Source: an uncultured Gammaproteobacteria bacterium (lineage in GTDB: Bacteria > Pseudomonadota > Gammaproteobacteria > SURF-13). Taken from it: DNA of 43,568 bases. The stretch is taken from assembly GCA_964442865.1 (NCBI GenBank), contig CAYUAZ010000001.1, positions 1 to 43,568 on the forward strand, written 5' to 3'. Below, in pieces: positions 1,886 to 19,250 of this stretch. The notes under the pieces are model-generated. The model was not told where the DNA came from. It did not search any database and worked only from the letters and a program-made list of their open reading frames with translations. The translations under genes were made by a program, and so were the position numbers. The stretch's first letter is position 1. Each line of letters begins with the position of its first letter.

Positions 1886-2685
1886 GATGCAGCCACCACT
1901 TGTTGGTTTGCGGGGGACTCGCCCTGCAAAGTGTCCAATAACGCTGCGTAAGCGATCGAACCGCGCGCCTGGGGATTGCTCAAGGACAGCGGCGCACCGG
2001 TGCGGCTCGCCTCCCTAAACTGGGTGTCCACCGGAATCTCGGATATCCAGGTCTCGCGGTACTTCTGCCGCAGCAGGTTAAGGCTTTCCACGCCGGCACG
2101 GGTGCGGCGGTCGAACAGTGTCGGCACGATGGTGTAGACCAAGGGCAGCTTGCGCGCGCGGGTAATCATGGCGAGGGTATGCAGCATGCGCTCCAGTCCC
2201 TTGAGCGCGAGAAATTCGGTCTGTACCGGGATCAGCAGATGCTCGCAGGCAGCGAGCGCATTGACCATCAACACGCCCAGCATGGGCGGGCAATCCAGCA
2301 GCGCATAATCAAATTCGTTCTGCACTTCCGCGAGAGCGCGCGCGACAATGAGGCCCATGCCGTCCTGACCGCTAAGTTGCCGGTCGAGGGTAGCTAGGGC
2401 GGTGCTGGCGGGAAGGACGCTGATACGGTTGAAGCGGGTCGGACGGATCGCCTGCGCGATGCGCTGTTTGTTCAAACCCGCCGCATCTTTATATTGAAAC
2501 AGGGTGTACAGACTCGTCTCGACGGCGTCAGGGTCGTGACCGAAATAGCTGCTGAGCGAACCGTGCGGGTCCATATCCACCAGCAACGTGGCGTAGCCGC
2601 GCGCGGCCAACAGGCCGGCCAGGCTGATGGCGGTAGTGGTCTTGCCTACCCCGCCCTTTTGGTTGGCGACTGCCCAGATTTTCAT
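1879..2685 (-). CDS. ParA/MinD-family ATPase of the chemotaxis cluster (ParC-like)
   Basis: 268 aa with deviant Walker A (MKIWAVANQKGGVGKTTTAISLA). Its ATG overlaps the motD stop as ATGA. Confidence 0.85.
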   Translation of the reverse strand: MKIWAVANQKGGVGKTTTAISLAGLLAARGYATLLVDMDPHGSLSSYFGHDPDAVETSLYTLFQYKDAAGLNKQRIAQAIRPTRFNRISVLPASTALATLDRQLSGQDGMGLIVARALAEVQNEFDYALLDCPPMLGVLMVNALAACEHLLIPVQTEFLALKGLERMLHTLAMITRARKLPLVYTIVPTLFDRRTRAGVESLNLLRQKYRETWISEIPVDTQFREASRTGAPLSLSNPQARGSIAYAALLDTLQGESPANQQVVAASC

Positions 2686-4415
2686 TTTCCCGCCCCTGGC
2701 GCGGGGGCGTTTGACGCGCCCGGTTTAGTGGTGCCGATGGTCATCGGCGGCCTGACCAGGCTGCCGCCAAAGGGCAGTTGTATCGGCGGGGCGATCTGCT
2801 GCGGGAAGCCCGGCCTTACTGATTGAGGCGCGCGGCTGAATTCTACCGGCGCGCGCGGGGCCACCGGCTGCACCGGCGGGGCAGTCTTGACCGGCGGGGC
2901 GGGCGGCGCCACAGGCGGCGCAGGTATATTAACCAGGGTGCGGCTGTCCTGCGCATCCGCATTCTGCGATGGCGCGGGAGTCTGGGGCGGCGCAGCAGGT
3001 AGCGTCGGCGCTGTGCTGGGCGCGACAGCGGGTAGTTCCTGGCGATGCTGGCCGAATGAATTCGGCCCTACAGGCGCCGGGCTGGTTTGCGCAGGTAAAC
3101 GAATGGGTGACAAAGGCGCCACAGGGTGAACCGGCGGGGCAGCGCTGATCGGTGCCAGCGGCCGCGCTATGGGGACAATGGGCGCTATGGGCGTCAAGGG
3201 TGCCGACGGTTGTGTCCGCACGGGCAGGCTGACGGATGGCTTTACTACCGGCGTGGAGTTCGTCTGCACCTGCTTTTCACTATAAGAGATCGAGGGCTTC
3301 AGCAACTCCGGCGACGGCGCGGAGGCTCCGGCCGGCTCGCCGAGTTTGAGCCAACCCGGCAATTCAACAGGTGGCGCAGCAGGCACTGGCGTGGCCTTGT
3401 TCATCATAAGCAATGACGCTGCTGCAGCGGCGGGCGCAGCGGTCTCGCCGGTGGAAGGTGACGGACTGGCAGGCGCTTGTTCAGGCTGGTTTGCGGCCTG
3501 TACCGGTTTGGGTTCGGGTTTGAATTCTTGCAGATCCGGCGCCTGCTCCGGTTCGGCCAGTATGGCCAGTATCACGCGGCGGTTTTTGCTGCGGCTCTCC
3601 GCGGTGTCATTGTCGGTAACCGGTTGATATTCGCCATAGCCTATCGCGGCCATGCGCTCGGGGCGCACGCCGCTATCGGCGAACAGGTGCACGACGCTCG
3701 CGGCGCGCGCGGCGGAGAGTTCCCAGTTGGAGGGAAAAACAAAGCTGCGGATCGGGTCGTTGTCGGTATAGCCGGACACCTCGATGGGGTTGGAGAACGG
3801 CGCGAGGATCGCGGCGATGCGTTCCAGAATCGGTACCGCCTCCGCTTGCACGCGCGCGCTGCCGCTGCCAAACAGGATGCTGGCCTTGAGTTCGATCTCC
3901 ACGCGCTGCGGTGCGCTGCGCACCTCGATGAGTTTGCTCTCCGCAAGCTGGCCGAGCGCCTCCTTGATCCGCGCGGCGATCTCCTGCATCGGCGCCACGG
4001 TTTCGCCCTGATGCGCCGACGCCTGTGGCTGTGCCGCACCTCGCGGCGCGGTCTCCTTGCCCTGCGAGTCGGGCAAGGGCTTGCGGCCCTGATGGGTGTC
4101 GGGCGGGAACGGCGAAAGCGGGCGCGGCAGCGGCGGGCGCGGCGGCTGGATCACGGCCGGCTTGTCGCGCACGTTGGGACTGGGTGAGGCCGGTGACTTG
4201 GAGGGCTCGCCGACCTGGATCGGCTCCAGGGTCTTGGGGGCGGAACGGAACGCCGCCACCAGGGCGTCGGAGAGCACGCGGTATTTGCCCTGGTTCACCG
4301 ACGAAATGGCGTACATCACCACAAAAAAGGCGAACAGCAGCGTGATGAAATCGGCGTAGGACACCAGCCACCGTTCATGGTTGACGTGCTCTTCATGTTT
4401 TTGTTTGCGGGCCAT
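2682..4415 (-). CDS. motD: Flagellar stator protein MotD/MotB-like with a long Pro/Ala-rich C-terminal extension
   Basis: The N-terminus carries the MotB-type TM/plug with the conserved Asp (WLVSYADFITLLFAFFVVMYA). An OmpA-like peptidoglycan-binding domain follows (GYTDNDPIRS...NWELSAARAASVV...NRRVILAIL) up to about residue 290. A further ~287 residues of P/A/V/S-rich sequence run to an ATGA-coupled stop. Confidence 0.85.
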   Translation of the reverse strand: MARKQKHEEHVNHERWLVSYADFITLLFAFFVVMYAISSVNQGKYRVLSDALVAAFRSAPKTLEPIQVGEPSKSPASPSPNVRDKPAVIQPPRPPLPRPLSPFPPDTHQGRKPLPDSQGKETAPRGAAQPQASAHQGETVAPMQEIAARIKEALGQLAESKLIEVRSAPQRVEIELKASILFGSGSARVQAEAVPILERIAAILAPFSNPIEVSGYTDNDPIRSFVFPSNWELSAARAASVVHLFADSGVRPERMAAIGYGEYQPVTDNDTAESRSKNRRVILAILAEPEQAPDLQEFKPEPKPVQAANQPEQAPASPSPSTGETAAPAAAAASLLMMNKATPVPAAPPVELPGWLKLGEPAGASAPSPELLKPSISYSEKQVQTNSTPVVKPSVSLPVRTQPSAPLTPIAPIVPIARPLAPISAAPPVHPVAPLSPIRLPAQTSPAPVGPNSFGQHRQELPAVAPSTAPTLPAAPPQTPAPSQNADAQDSRTLVNIPAPPVAPPAPPVKTAPPVQPVAPRAPVEFSRAPQSVRPGFPQQIAPPIQLPFGGSLVRPPMTIGTTKPGASNAPAPGAGK

Positions 4416-4424
4416 AATAAATAA

Positions 4425-4477
4425 GTAGGGCCGAATTCATTCGGCCTTCGGTACAGTGCGAATGAATTCGCACCTAC
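4425..4477. repeat. REP-like nested palindromic element between motD and motC
   Basis: gtagg-GCCGAATTCATTCGGCC-ttcggtacagt-GCGAATGAATTCGC-a-cctac: two hairpins with cgaa/ttcg stems inside an outer gtagg/cctac stem. Its first 22 nt recur, reverse-complemented, at 3050-3071. Confidence 0.55.
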
Positions 4478-14751: not shown

Positions 14752-15885
14752 TCAGTCTCGCCTAAACTCGTCGGGGATCGGCAGTTCGTCGGGCAACGGC
14801 GTGGGTTGTAGATCCGGGTTCTCCACCTGGCGCCGCAGTTGGTACACATAGGCGAGTACCTGCGCCACGGCGAGATACAGGCCGGCCGGGATCTCCTGAT
14901 TGAGATCGGTGCTGTGATACACCGCGCGCGTCAGGCTGGGCGCCGAGACGATGCTCACCTTGTGCTCGGCGCCCACTTCGCGGATTCGCTGCGCGATAGG
15001 TCCCGCGCCCTTGGCGACCAGCCTGGGCGCGCCCATGCGGCTCTGGTCGTAACGCAGCGCCACGGCGTAATGGGTCGGGTTGGTGATAATCACGTCGGCC
15101 TTGGGCACCTCGGCCATCATGCGCCGCTGCGCCATTTCGCGTTGCAGGAAGCGGATACGGCCCTTGATCTGCGGATTACCGTCGGTCTCCTTACCTTCAT
15201 CACGAATTTCCTGGCGGGTCATCTTAAGCTTCTTGGCGTGATCCCAGATCTGGAACGGCACGTCCGCAGCGGCGATGACTAGCATCGTCGAACTGCACAC
15301 CAGAAACGCCCAGGCCAGCAGATTGATCGTATGGGCGAGCGCCACATTGAGCGGCTCCGTGCCCAGATTCAGAATTGCGCCGGCGTTATACTTGAGCCAC
15401 ACCAACAGCGCGGCGACCACCAGGGTGAATTTCACCAGGGCCTTGATGAGCTCCATGCCGCTGTGCGCCGAGAACAAGCGGCCCAAACCCTTGAGGGGGT
15501 CGAGCTTCTCCCAACTGAAGGCCAGCGCCTTGCTGCTGAACGACCAGCCGCCCAGCAACAGCGGCGCGACCAGCGCGACCATAACCAGCAGCAGGAAAAA
15601 GGGGAACAGCGCACTCAGCGCATCGAACACACCCTGCCCAAACAGGCGCGTGAGCGCGGTGGGATCGAAGACTTGAGTACGGTTCAGGCTCAAGCCGCCG
15701 CGCATCAACGCGCTCAAGTTATTGACCAGTCCCGCGCCTAAAAAAAGCAACGCCCCGGCGGCCGCCAACAACATCGCCAGGGTGTTCATCTCGCGCGAGC
15801 GTACCGTTTGCCCTTTTTCGCGCGCCTCCTCCAGGCGCTTGGGTGTCGCTTGTTCTGTGCGTTCTTGCCCGTCATTTTGCGCCAT
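14752..15885 (-). CDS. flhB: Flagellar export switch protein FlhB
   Basis: 377 aa. N-terminus MAQNDGQERTEQATPKRLEEAREKGQ and NPTH autocleavage site (ITNPTHYAVALRY). Confidence 0.95.
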   Translation of the reverse strand: MAQNDGQERTEQATPKRLEEAREKGQTVRSREMNTLAMLLAAAGALLFLGAGLVNNLSALMRGGLSLNRTQVFDPTALTRLFGQGVFDALSALFPFFLLLVMVALVAPLLLGGWSFSSKALAFSWEKLDPLKGLGRLFSAHSGMELIKALVKFTLVVAALLVWLKYNAGAILNLGTEPLNVALAHTINLLAWAFLVCSSTMLVIAAADVPFQIWDHAKKLKMTRQEIRDEGKETDGNPQIKGRIRFLQREMAQRRMMAEVPKADVIITNPTHYAVALRYDQSRMGAPRLVAKGAGPIAQRIREVGAEHKVSIVSAPSLTRAVYHSTDLNQEIPAGLYLAVAQVLAYVYQLRRQVENPDLQPTPLPDELPIPDEFRRD

Positions 15886-15914
15886 GGCTCAATTCTCCGG
15901 TTGCACCAGATGAA

Positions 15915-16140
15915 CTCTGAAAAATTCCATCCTAGCGCTACGCTGTCCTGCTACGCTTGGATGCCAGGGTTTGCCATCCTTGGCAAACCCGTTCGCTGCT
16001 TTGCAGCTCACCCATGGAATTTTCAGAGGCGAAAGGCAAAAACATGGTTCTTGCCTTTCTTCGCTCTTCAAATGCGTACGCATTTGAAGAGTGGCGGCAC
16101 ATCCGTGTACCGCAGGAATCTCTGATATATCAGAGATTCC
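15915..16140 (-). repeat. Five-hairpin structured element, copy B (homolog of 18876-19026, opposite orientation, 83-bp nested insert in hairpin 5)
   Basis: The reverse complement aligns module by module with copy A. Modules: H1 ggaatctctga/tcagagattcc, H2 gcggtaca/tgtgccgc, H3 ctcttcaaatgcg/cgcatttgaagag, H4 gaaaggcaagaac/gtttttgcctttc, H5 ctctgaaaattccat/atggaatttttcagag. The differences from A are mostly compensatory. Confidence 0.65.
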
Positions 16141-16169
16141 TTAACGGATTCTACTGAGGGAAACAGATC

Positions 16170-16532
16170 ATGACAAAATCAGAACTCATAGAGATACTCT
16201 CCCGCAAACAGACTCAGTTGGCCTATAAGGATATAGAACTGACTGTAAAAACCATGCTCGATCAGATGGGTCAGGCGCTCGCCAACGGTCAGCGCATCGA
16301 GATCCGCGGCTTCGGCAGTTTTTCCCTGCATTACCGCCCGCCTCGTGTCGGCCGTAACCCCAAGACCGGCGATCCGGTGTCGCTGTATGGAAAGTACGTG
16401 CCTCACTTCAAGCCGGGCAAGGAGCTGCGTGAGCGAGTCAATCGCGGCATGGTCGCTCCCGGCGCCCCCGGATCGAGTCCGGGGCAGGCTCTGTCTCCCG
16501 CGACATTGGTACGTCCCTATACGTCAAAATAA
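16170..16532 (+). CDS. ihfB: Integration host factor beta subunit
   Basis: MTKSELIE...[48 protein letters not shown] is the classic IHF-beta/HU fold. At 120 aa it is ~26 aa longer than the E. coli protein, with a Pro/Gly/Ser-rich tail. Confidence 0.92.
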
Positions 16533-16553
16533 GTACCGGCGTGTAATACCCGC

Positions 16554-16588
16554 ACGGCATGCGCTGAAAAGCCCATGCCGTTTTTTTT
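16554..16588 (+). terminator. Rho-independent terminator after ihfB
   Basis: acggcatg-cgctgaaaagcc-catgccgt followed by T8. Confidence 0.7.
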
Positions 16589-16696
16589 GAGCGAGCGGCT
16601 CCTCCGGGAATGATTGATTCAACCGCGCTATTAGGCTTATCCTGTGCAGTATCGCTCCCGCGACATTAGTCGTCCCTGTACGTCAGAGGTGGCATC

Positions 16697-16987
16697 GTGC
16701 GTATTATTCGTTTATTGTTTTTCTTTATCATCCTGCTGCTGGGTTTGAGCTTCGCGGTGCTTAACGCGGAGCCCGTCAACCTCGATTATTATTTCGGTAG
16801 TTGGCAGGCCCCGTTATCGCTGCTGCTGGTTGCAGCCATGACCTTGGGGGTGATGTTCGGTATCCTGGCGTGCCTGGGTATGCTGCTGGGCTTGAAGAGA
16901 GAGGTGCGCAAGCTTCGCAAGTCGGCGCAGCTTGCTCAGGAAGAGGTTGCCAATCTGCGGGCCTTGCCTCTCCAAGGGACCGAATAG
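16697..16987 (+). CDS. lapA: LPS assembly protein LapA (YciS, DUF1049)
   Basis: 96 aa with two TM helices and a basic/coiled tail. GTG start. It lies directly upstream of lapB with a 1-nt overlap (TAGTG). The ihfB-lapA-lapB-pyrF synteny is conserved. Confidence 0.75.
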   Translation: MRIIRLLFFFIILLLGLSFAVLNAEPVNLDYYFGSWQAPLSLLLVAAMTLGVMFGILACLGMLLGLKREVRKLRKSAQLAQEEVANLRALPLQGTE

Positions 16988-18153
16988 TGTGGGAATTGCT
17001 GTGGCTTTTGTTGCCTGTGGCAGCCATCTCGGGTTGGTGGGTCGCCAAGCGCGATAGCGACCGCAGCACGCATTACAAAACGCCCGGTCTGTCGTCGCAT
17101 TACTTCAAGGGACTCAACTATCTGCTCAACGAGCAGCCCGATAAGGCCATCGAAGTTTTTCTCAAGATGCTCGAGGTGGACAGCGAAACGGCGGAGACGC
17201 ACCTGGCCCTGGGCAACTTGTTCCGGCGTCGCGGCGAAGTGGATCGCGCCATCCGCATTCACCAAAACCTCATCGCCCGTCCCTCCCTGAGCCGTCCGTT
17301 GCGCACACTTGCCCTGCTGGAGTTGGGTCAGGATTACATGCGGGCGGGGTTATTCGACCGCGCCGAAACCTTGTTCCTGGAGCTGATCGAGATGAACGAT
17401 CATACCGCACCGGCGCTGCGGCACTTGATTGATATCTATCAGCAGGAAAAGGAATGGGACAAGGCGATAGCCGTAACGAAAAGATGGGAAGAGGTCAGCG
17501 GCAAAAGTTGCTCCGAGGTCATCGCCCATTACTATTGCGAATTGGCCGAACAGGCGCGGCAGCAGCGGAATTTCGATCAAGCTGCGCGCATGATTGAGCG
17601 CGCACTGGAATTCGATCGCAACTGCGTCAGGGCAAGTTTGCTACAGGGAGATATGGAAGTGGCGGCTGGGGATTGCAAGGCGGCCATACGCACCCTAAAG
17701 CGGGTCGAGCAGCAAGACCCTGATTATCTTCCCGAAGTCATCGAGCCGCTGCTCGATTGCCATAACACATTAGGTCAGACCGGCGAAATCATTGTCTATC
17801 TGAAACAGATTCTTGCCAAGCACAGCAGCATCAGCCTGATACTCGCGCTTGCCGAACTGTTGCGTCGCCAGGAGGGCGATGACGTGGCTGCAAACTTTAT
17901 TACCGAACAGCTTCGTAAACGTCCGTCAGTGCGCGGCCTTGATCGTCTTATCGAATTAAATCTCGTACATTCCGAAGGCGCCGCGCGTGACAATCTCCTG
18001 ATCCTCAGGGATCTGGTAAAAAAGCTGCTTGAAGAAAAACCCGTCTATAAATGCAATCACTGTGGATTTGTTGGGAGGTCGCTGCATTGGCAATGCCCGA
18101 GCTGCAAGAACTGGAACAGTATGAAACCTATTCATGGAGTCGAAGGTGAATAA
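16987..18153 (+). CDS. lapB: LPS assembly protein LapB (YciM): N-terminal TM, TPR repeats, C-terminal rubredoxin-like zinc site
   Basis: Start set at GTG 16987 ([23 protein letters not shown]), giving 388 aa against 389 in E. coli. TPRs ([22 protein letters not shown]) and a C-terminal [25 protein letters not shown]. The longer track ORF from 16801 overlaps lapA. Confidence 0.9.
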
Positions 18154-18862
18154 CTCGCCGATCATAGTCGCGCTGGATTTTGCCGATCCGTCCAAGGCGC
18201 TGGAGCTATTGAGCCGTCTTGATCCGCAGCAGTGCCGTGTAAAGGTTGGCAAAGAACTGTTCTGCCGGGGCGGCCCGGCATTAGTAGAAAAGGTGATGAA
18301 GCTGGGCTTCGATGTCTTTCTCGATTTGAAATTCCACGATATTCCCAATACTGTTGCGCAGGCCTGTACTGCGGCTGCGGAACTCGGCGTGTGGATGGTA
18401 AACGTTCACGCCCTGGGCGGGCGCAAGATGATGGAAGCAGCGCGTGCGGCGATTAACGCGCAATCCAAACCCCCGTTGTTAATTGCGGTCACTGTTCTCA
18501 CCAGCCTCGATGCCAACGACCTTCTCGAAATCGGCCTTGCAGGTGCTCCACAGGAAAATGTCCTGCGCCTGGCGGCATTGGCCAAACAGGCGGGTATGGA
18601 TGGCGTGGTGTGCTCCCCCCTGGAAGCAGCGGCGCTGCGCGCCATCCACGGCAAGAATTTCTTATTGGTTACGCCGGGGGTGCGTCCGCTGGGCGCTGAG
18701 CAGGGCGACCAAAAGCGCATTATGACACCGCGCGAAGCAGTCCAAAACGGCGCCGATTATCTGGTTATCGGCCGGCCGATTACCGCCGCCGCCGACCCCG
18801 GCCGCAGCCTGATGAGTATCCGGGAGGAACTTGGTAATGACCACGCAGTGCACACATCTTGA
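18134..18862 (+). CDS. pyrF: Orotidine 5'-phosphate decarboxylase
   Basis: [16 protein letters not shown] and [10 protein letters not shown] motifs. GTG 18146, preceded by GGAG, is an alternative start. Confidence 0.93.
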
Positions 18863-19250
18863 CCAAATCCAAAAAGGAACCTCTGATTAAGTCAGAGGTT
18901 CCTGCGGTGCAGGGATGCACCGCCATTTTTCAAACACGTAAGTGTTTGAAAAATGAAGAAAAGCAAAAACCACGTTTTTTGCTTTTCTTGCTCTGAGAAG
19001 TCCAGGATGGACTTATTCAGAGCTTCAAAAAGTCGCGCCCAGTGCGCCGGGCTGTGAAGACTGTCTCAAGACCGGAGACGAGTGGGTACATCTGTGCCTA
19101 TGTTTGATCTGCGGGCATGCAGGCTGCTGCGACTCGTCGAAGAATAAACACGCGACCAGGCATTTTCACGGGACCGGTCATCCTGTTATTCAATCCCTTG
19201 AACCTGGCGAAGACTGGCGCTGGTGCTATGTGGATCAGACCTACTTGTAA
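18837..19250 (+). pseudogene. zf-UBP-type zinc-finger protein gene interrupted by a 151-bp hairpin element
   Basis: The 5' piece ATG 18837 encodes [13 protein letters not shown]. The 3' piece, in the same frame, encodes VAPSAPGCEDCLKTGDEWVHLCLCLICGHAGCCDSSKNKHATRHFHGTGHPVIQSLEPGEDWRWCYVDQTYL*. Between them are 156 bp carrying three in-frame stops (18888, 18939, 18954). Removing the insert restores ...HLDQIQKVAPSAPGCEDC..., the usual N-terminus of this small-protein family. Confidence 0.7.
18876..19026 (+). mobile_element. Five-hairpin MITE/REPIN-like element, copy A, inserted in the zf-UBP gene with a short A-rich target duplication
   Basis: Hairpins: H1 18876-18902, H2 18904-18923, H3 18925-18954, H4 18958-18987, H5 18991-19022. 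The element is flanked by caaaaag at 18870-18876 and 19026-19032. The 5-7 bp duplication boundary is ambiguous. No coding capacity. Confidence 0.65.

Follow-up and report, generated by a model that had tools for sequence, protein, structure and literature searches.

The stretch of DNA analyzed here, referred to as the window, comprises 43,568 nucleotides from an uncultured Gammaproteobacteria bacterium of the GTDB lineage SURF-13 (GenBank assembly GCA_964442865.1, contig CAYUAZ010000001.1, positions 1 to 43,568 of the forward strand). It contains two clusters of five hairpins which differ from each other mostly by changes that keep the pairing, and which a first-pass annotation, made from the sequence alone, had attributed either to a mobile element of the REPIN or miniature inverted-repeat transposable element (MITE) type, mobilised as folded single-stranded DNA, or to a family of structured RNA. 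What are these clusters, how do they move and what keeps their stems paired? Our analysis indicates that they are copies of a non-autonomous, non-coding MITE of about 150 bp, which belongs to the IS5 group of the IS5 family of insertion sequences. We give this reading a probability of about 0.88.

The clusters correspond to one element present in two diverged copies within 3 kb, copy A at 18876-19027 on the + strand (152 nt) and copy B at 15911-16140 on the - strand. MAFFT alignment paired the reverse complement of 15915-16140 module by module with 18876-19026, and a repeat finder returned 16032-16125 against 18892-18985 (94 nt, 79% complementary) as the longest inverted repeat of the window, in which no third copy was found. 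Each copy is made of five abutting hairpins (H1 to H5) and its folding far exceeds that of shuffled sequence. Copy A folds at -61.7 kcal/mol with a DNA z-score of -14.8, copy B has a DNA z-score of -10.0, and none of 200 shuffles was as good in either case. Pair by pair, the copies are distinguished by eight compensated pairs, four of them in H3 and one each in H1 (C:G to T:A), H2 (G:C to A:T), H4 (A:T to G:C) and H5 (G:C to T:A). Two Watson-Crick pairs have become G:T (in H2 and H4) and one A:C is found at the outermost pair of H3. The alignment of the two regions, the count of about eight compensated pairs and the two wobble changes reported by the first-pass annotation were thus recovered hairpin by hairpin, and gene context agrees with its placing of copy B in the 284-bp gap between flhB and ihfB, the element strand being the sense strand of flhB. 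Other details had to be amended: both copies are real, but their ends are corrected to those given above, and the nested insert reported inside H5 of copy B does lie in the H5 loop but measures 79 nt (15933-16011) and not 83.

A dispersed family with IS5-type ends

Species-representative genomes were scanned with a pattern of the H1 hairpin, which led to the recovery of at least 120 loci of 8 kb each. L-numbers are used below as labels of loci retrieved from genomes and metagenomes, with coordinates within each locus. Among the matches listed, almost all come from Gammaproteobacteria of many orders, the hosts including Pseudohongiella, Lysobacterales/Xanthomonadaceae, Ahniella, Methylococcales, Acidiferrobacterales, Chromatiales and Wenzhouxiangellaceae, together with the cultured Thermomonas alba and Dyella choica. 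Hairpin parsing and alignment revealed the same H1-H5 architecture of about 150 nt throughout, most copies being 147-165 nt long. A covariance model built from 38 copies found about 90 full-length copies among the at least 120 loci listed, so that the element is multi-copy beyond the window, as had been proposed; copy A itself was matched along the whole model with a score of 159 bits. T. alba SYSU G04536 (L037, 2154-2305) and D. choica 4 M-K27 (L099, 7058-7208) each have a complete copy with all five hairpins and with GGA loops, and on chromosome OZ244905.1 the H1 pattern was matched at least 10 times, in 8 loci. In blastn, copy A matched none of 72,556 plasmids, and a search of viral contigs gave a single match, to a lone H1 hairpin, phage carriage not being evident.

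A known RNA family, for which a check in Rfam had been recommended, was not recognized: the whole window at gathering thresholds gave no match for the copies, and the region 15850-19100 with E-values up to 5 gave chance-level hits only, with no CsrB or Rsm family. No earlier description of the five-hairpin family was retrieved from full-text literature (PubMed Central and bioRxiv), where the terminal-repeat strings matched unrelated primers only. We therefore found no prior description of the family in Rfam or the literature, ISfinder and Dfam being outside that scope.

The ends of the element are 18-bp terminal inverted repeats, GGAAnCTCTGAwTAAGTC on the left and, on the other strand, GGAAGCTCTGAATAAGTCC on the right. 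Copy A begins with GGAACCTCTGATTAAGTC and ends with the same right repeat except for a mutated last base (TTCA for TTCC). The right inverted repeat (IRR) of IS5A from E. coli K-12, GGAAGGTGCGAAYAAGTC, is identical to the element end at 14 of 18 positions. Identical 4-mers were present on both flanks in 49 of the 76 copies with recognisable ends, whereas 10,000 shuffles gave 8.6 on average and never more than 19. Among these 49 matching duplications, 34 are TTAA, CTAG, CTAA or TTAG (YTAR) and 15 are non-YTAR; 24 of them repeat directly without being palindromes, and a single flank pair was inverted. A YTAR target is duplicated by IS5 (PMC5009759).

Metagenomes were then scanned for the terminal repeat where sequence foreign to the element follows it, which gave loci L127-L246, this number of matches being a minimum. 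In these metagenomes the same ends with YTAR flanks border insertion sequences of 1.17-1.18 kb (L148, 4365-5534; L245, 149-1331; also L197, L183 and L136). Their transposases are 46-56% identical to InsH and match DDE_Tnp_1 and DUF772, and the NCBIfam IS5-family model NF033581 matches at 339 bits (cut-off 140). Since the repeats combine IS5-like ends with a 4-bp duplication, and IS5 transposases are found between the same ends, they are best regarded as an IS5-group MITE. An IS5-type DDE transposase supplied in trans would recognise the 18-bp terminal repeats and would insert the element at YTAR-like sites, with duplication of 4 bp.

Several observations weigh against this assignment. With tblastn of InsH, neither the window nor the 120 genome loci gave an IS5-type transposase, and it is therefore by inference that a partner is assigned to this genome and that the element is held to be mobilised in trans there. 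The complete insertion sequences of L148 and L245 are without clean direct duplications of their own. The duplication at copy A, AAAA, departs from YTAR and its length can be given only to within 1-2 nt, while copy B has no matching target duplication, its flank being kept only on the ihfB side. A plain MITE model also leaves the conserved interior hairpins and loops unexplained.

The view that the element is of the REPIN type and mobilised as folded single-stranded DNA stood only in part. Its mobile, multi-copy and MITE-type character was retained, but REPIN and folded single-stranded DNA had to be abandoned in view of the terminal repeats, the 4-bp direct duplication and the IS5 ends. Repetitive extragenic palindromic (REP) sequences reportedly carry a GTAG-type tetranucleotide, make no target duplication and depend on a Y1 transposase, RAYT. 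Movement of the five-hairpin element by a RAYT or an IS200/IS605-type Y1 transposase would be compatible with its abutting hairpins and with the excess of G:T on one strand described below, both of which suit recognition of single-stranded DNA, and GTAG-type REP units do occur elsewhere in the genome. However, a 4-bp direct target duplication is not produced by Y1 transposition, the 18-bp terminal repeats are common with IS5-family DDE elements, and the orientation of copies shows no bias relative to GC skew, taken as a replication proxy. Moreover, no GTAG or CTAC adjoins the hairpins: the element opens with GGAA and is bordered by YTAR duplications. Given the lack of GTAG and the presence of a target duplication, the REPIN/RAYT reading therefore fails on two defining features, and we consider it very improbable.

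REP-like units were seen in the window itself. A doublet at 4425-4476, between motA and motB, consists of GTAGGGCCGAATTCATTCGGCC and its inverted partner GTGCGAATGAATTCGCACCTAC with GTAG/CTAC tails, and a third unit, at 3050-3071, lies inside the long motB-like open reading frame 2682-4415. None of them is related to the five-hairpin element, and they are units of the kind on which a RAYT would act.

Incomplete and enlarged forms of the MITE were also noticed. Lone H1 hairpins of 26-28 bp with identical flanking 4-mers occur, for example, in L005 (6649-6675), L040 (5435-5461), L058 (6265-6291), L103 (572-598) and L110 (962-988). A lone H1 may be either a minimal transposable unit made of two abutting terminal repeats or, by analogy with solo long terminal repeats, the remnant of a deletion between the two direct TCAGAGnTTCC copies. 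The copies in L123 (3085-3132) and L020 (6640-6681) have in common a GC-rich 48-nt insert between H4 and H5, and those from chromosome OZ251218.1 (L011, L065 and L101) carry CTGCCTGCAGCAGGCAGG palindromes. The five-hairpin element seems to attract small palindromic insertions.

Insertion sites of the two copies

Copy A sits inside a gene. An ATG at 18837 opens 13 codons (18837-18875, + strand) before the frame enters the element, through which it meets stop codons. The same frame resumes on the other side with VAPSAPGCEDCLKTGDEWVHL, and the remaining 72 codons and the stop are found at 19032-19250 (+ strand). Excision of 156 bp (18877-19032) restores an 85-amino-acid protein which matches Pfam zf-UBP and is 85-86% identical, over its full length, to homologues of 85 amino acids. 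The target duplication, AAAA, is located at 18872-18875 on the left and 19028-19031 on the right, with bounds that may move by 1-2 nt within the A-run; it was assigned from the 4-bp duplication of the family as a whole and from comparison with the empty site. This site is provided by L123 (GCA_016195665.1), L124 and L125, in which the order is ihfB-lapA-lapB-pyrF-zfUBP and the zf-UBP gene is unbroken. Their junction reads CAAATCCAAAAAGTGACA and contains the A-run once, whereas the element in the window has an A-run to its left and another to its right. Copy A is thus a fairly recent insertion, in the sense orientation of both pyrF and zf-UBP; the small zf-UBP gene, which comes right after pyrF, was broken in two and inactivated by it.

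Copy B has a different history. In the window, flhA and flhB (14752-15885) are on the - strand, followed by the 284-bp gap with copy B and, on the + strand, by ihfB (16170), lapB and pyrF. Orthologues of copy B are present upstream of ihfB in L123 (3045-3245) and L124 (1-77), and the ihfB-side flank, CCCTCAGTAGAATCCG-TTAA, is identical in L123 and in the window, where TTAA is at 16141-16144. Supported by its fold, by the covariance model and by these orthologues, copy B is an old and degraded five-hairpin MITE, inserted upstream of ihfB and common to related genomes. Its other flank differs. L123 has TTAG followed by the end of rpsA, in the order cmk-rpsA-MITE-ihfB (the common order being cmk-rpsA-ihfB), whereas the window has flhA-flhB-MITE-ihfB (15886-16169, for which the L123 counterpart is 3033-3273). 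The break in synteny therefore falls at the H5 end of copy B, which suggests that a rearrangement, presumably at or through copy B, placed flhBA beside ihfB. As a result of a breakpoint in this position, the whole upstream region of flhB is now MITE sequence, read in the flhB sense. The right end of copy B is damaged and one base short (TCAGAG-TTCA), and the flhB start codon lies 25 nt further on.

The 79-nt insert in the H5 loop (15933-16011, - strand) is absent from the L123 orthologue and has a GGA-loop hairpin of its own, GGGTTTGCC-AAGGA-TGGCAAACCC. It was considered as a member of another repeat family, of which neither the window nor the 126 retrieved loci yielded a further copy, and as the site of a sigma-54 promoter, which was rejected by eye on account of the wrong spacing. 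A sigma-70-like sequence, TTGTCA-17-TAGAAT, which matches the consensus at 10 of 12 positions, is located at 16148-16176 on the - strand, just upstream of H1 of copy B. It overlaps the ihfB start, and transcription from it would run across copy B into flhB, of which it is by this consensus match a candidate promoter. The only public contig encoding an identical FlhB, Logan contig SRR13723388_1877 (L126), stops within copy B, 81 nt upstream of flhB; this short-read assembly probably breaks at the repeat.

Covariation and loop sequences in the interior

The proposal that structure rather than sequence is conserved, first made from the two copies of the window, now extends to about 90 copies from many genomes. 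Of the 37 pairs predicted by RNAalifold, 26 had compensatory changes. When the full five-hairpin structure was placed on the MAFFT alignment, double changes were counted at 38 of 63 pairs, as compared with 26.9 in shuffles, none of 500 reaching 38, and with 15-23 for slid partners; the covariation score was 0.295 versus 0.130. Between the orthologous copies of the window (copy B) and L123, four compensated pairs were found versus one single change.

Despite this conservation, the interior is dispensable for the ends to be used. Among the metagenome loci, 68 short elements with the same terminal repeats could be sorted by their interiors into 24 groups (52-450 bp). Inspection of the 12 largest showed that all are unlike the five-hairpin interior and without consistent GGA loops, and by this grouping at least 23 further MITE types would have the same ends around another interior. 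Elements with these 18-bp ends and YTAR flanks were seen across soil, peat, groundwater and marine samples, and as judged from their sequences they form a large IS5-type MITE superfamily with many interiors. Since other interiors occur between the same ends, the transposase does not need the H1-H5 interior. The covariance model found no match to H1-H5 in the insertion sequences with these ends, and for these insertion sequences the idea that the interior is what a deletion left of their leader was rejected on this ground. The H2-H5 interior would then represent cargo, the stems of which are kept paired by compensatory change.

The hairpins of copy A, all read on the + strand, illustrate the organization of this cargo. 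In H1 (18876-18902), GGAACCTCTGA-TTAAG-TCAGAGGTTCC, the partner of the left terminal repeat is a copy, inside the element, of the right terminal sequence. H2 (18904-18923) is GCGGTGCA-GGGA-TGCACCGC, with a loop motif, CAGGGATG, that fits the ANGGAN-type CsrA/RsmA consensus. H3 (18924-18955) has a 14-bp stem and a GNRA-like GTAA loop, and H4 (18956-18989) an A/T-rich stem of 14 bp. H5 (18990-19023) is made of an outer stem, GCTCTGA/TCAGAGC, and an inner hairpin, AAGTCC-AGGAT-GGACTT; its loop, CAGGATG, is the CsrB repeat motif, and its 3' arm belongs to the right terminal repeat. In their loop contexts H2 reads GUGCAGGGAUGCAC and H5 reads GUCCAGGAUGGAC, with GGA in the loop and an ANGGAN or RUACARGGAUGU context.

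Throughout the family, loops are better conserved than stems, and this only on the H1-to-H5 strand. H2 is CA-NGGA-TG in 41 of 65 clean copies, H5 is CA-GGA-TG or CA-NGGA-TG in most copies, and the H3 loop is mostly C-GTAA-G or C-GCAA-G, which is GNRA-like. Consensus sequences were those of a review (PMC7652899) for CsrA ligands obtained by in vitro selection (SELEX) and for CsrB repeats. Among 90 copies, ACANGGANGT was counted in 48, the exact SELEX consensus RUACARGGAUGU in 13 and the CsrB repeat CAGGA[UAC]G in 39, both GGA loops being present in 64; motif counts on the opposite strand were 1 and 4. Stem mismatches also differ between strands, as had been noted for the two copies of the window: on the H1-to-H5 strand, 56 are of the G:T type and 15 of the A:C type. 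This asymmetry is real, but it is confined to mismatches shared between copies. Collapsing recurrent events gave 28 versus 15 (p = 0.07), locus-private mismatches are balanced (15 G:T versus 14 A:C), and by subtraction the mismatches shared between loci amount to about 13 G:T versus 1 A:C, which are small numbers. Such a pattern fits selection on propagating lineages.

The orientation of the element was found to be random relative to flanking open reading frames (34 sense and 40 antisense downstream of genes; 19 and 25 upstream) as well as to local GC skew (49 versus 41). A mutational origin of the wobble bias in the host context is therefore unlikely, and so is a general role of the element in host messenger RNAs.

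Conservation of loops on one strand argues for selection acting on that strand in a single-stranded form, which would most likely be RNA with two GGA hairpins of the CsrA/RsmA type. The match of these loops to the CsrA consensus makes the earlier structured-RNA reading, as applied to the interior, more specific. In its full form, this explanation holds that the interior is a functional RNA module, in which the transcribed H1-to-H5 strand would present two high-affinity CsrA/RsmA hairpins (H2 and H5) on a rigid scaffold of several hairpins, and that the MITE scatters Csr/Rsm sites or decoys into untranslated regions. It would add to the IS5-group MITE without replacing it. Loops which stay conserved while stems vary, strand-specific counts of CsrA consensus sequences and the mostly GNRA-like loop of H3 argue in its favor, as do the 13 to 1 ratio of shared mismatch classes, the four compensated pairs to one single change between copy B and its L123 orthologue, and the lack of these hairpins from the inspected MITE types with the same ends. 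On the other hand, orientation is random with respect to genes and GC skew, no internal promoter or terminator is evident, Rfam gave no family, CsrB/Rsm included, even at E up to 5, and the stems of 8-14 bp are longer than in typical SELEX ligands of CsrA (PMC7652899). In addition, the motif match was noticed post hoc, the wobble asymmetry weakens when events are collapsed and is gone in private ones, and a literature search did not find a link between MITEs and CsrA. We hold this explanation tentatively, as a minority reading.

The same hairpins might be without function, their palindromes being kept perfect by template switching within hairpins as DNA is replicated (quasipalindrome correction) or by gene conversion between copies, through either of which a change is copied from one arm to the other. 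In agreement with such an upkeep at the DNA level, all five modules are simple local palindromes that either DNA strand can form, private mismatches are without strand bias, orientation is random and small palindromic inserts build up inside copies. It would leave unexplained the strand-asymmetric conservation of loops above that of stems, the persistence of shared G:T over A:C (13 versus 1 classes), and the recurrence across many orders of five modules in one fixed order, about 150 nt in all. We judge it an unlikely rival, which bears on the covariation of the stems.

A role at the RNA level is plausible from the loop and stem sequences. A further proposal, that the MITE family carries a selected RNA cargo, moves Csr/Rsm sites or decoys among gammaproteobacterial genomes and so rewires post-transcriptional regulons, would follow from the RNA module and is doubtful at present. 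The flhB leader would be an example, where copy B is in the sense orientation and has at least two intact GGA hairpins (H2 and that of the nested insert). Tblastn of E. coli CsrA gave no match in the window or the retrieved loci, which is uninformative.

Significance and comparison with known systems

In the window, two hairpin clusters are resolved as transposon copies, and the inactivation of a zf-UBP gene and a breakpoint of rearrangement between flhBA and ihfB are identified. The family is abundant in environmental Gammaproteobacteria and present in at least two cultured species. It also constitutes a natural experiment, in which the same transposase signals enclose different cargo, the cargo here being structurally constrained and showing CsrA-like loops on one strand. 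If the CsrA reading is true, the family would clearly exemplify the spread, by a transposon, of binding sites for a global RNA regulator; if it is false, the family is still a useful model for the upkeep of local palindromes in DNA. The interior is unusually structured, and the link to CsrA, possible on the basis of its loops, deserves experiment.

The hairpin loops CAGGAUG or ANGGAN are a feature shared with the RNAs of the CsrB/RsmZ type, which also occur in Gammaproteobacteria. Unlike these RNAs, the element has only two such predicted loops per copy and no dedicated promoter or terminator, is found in both orientations and has no Rfam match. With REP/BIME and REPIN-RAYT systems it has in common short, hairpin-forming and highly repeated intergenic units capable of forming mosaics, but it is without the defining features of REP. 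ERIC/IRU sequences of Enterobacteriaceae and Vibrionaceae are of similar size (about 127-150 bp), gammaproteobacterial, mostly intergenic and occasionally within genes. They differ by a single imperfect palindrome and by their ends, and similarity in sequence was not found, nor did Rfam or BLAST give a match for the element. For ERIC, a structure at the RNA level has been proposed and effects on RNA processing have been reported (PMC10969869).

In its mode of operation the element resembles other bacterial MITEs, ERIC and Correia among them (PMC10969869). The Correia elements of Neisseria (CREE/NEMIS) are likewise small, abundant MITEs with terminal repeats, mostly near gene ends, with stable stem-loops in their transcripts, and they can be a source of regulatory signals (reviewed in PMC10969869). 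They have a TA duplication, one long foldback between the ends, and sites for IHF and RNase III, whereas the element described here has five independent local hairpins, a 4-bp YTAR duplication and a distribution over many orders and not one genus. By its ends, its duplication and the transposases found with these ends, the element is to be placed among derivatives of the IS5 group, as represented by IS5 of E. coli. The element has no transposase gene, measures 150 bp as compared with about 1.2 kb, and has an interior unrelated to the insertion sequences examined, but both have ends that start with GGAAG and match at 14 of 18 positions, both duplicate 4 bp with a preference for YTAR, and InsH-like transposases are found between the same ends.

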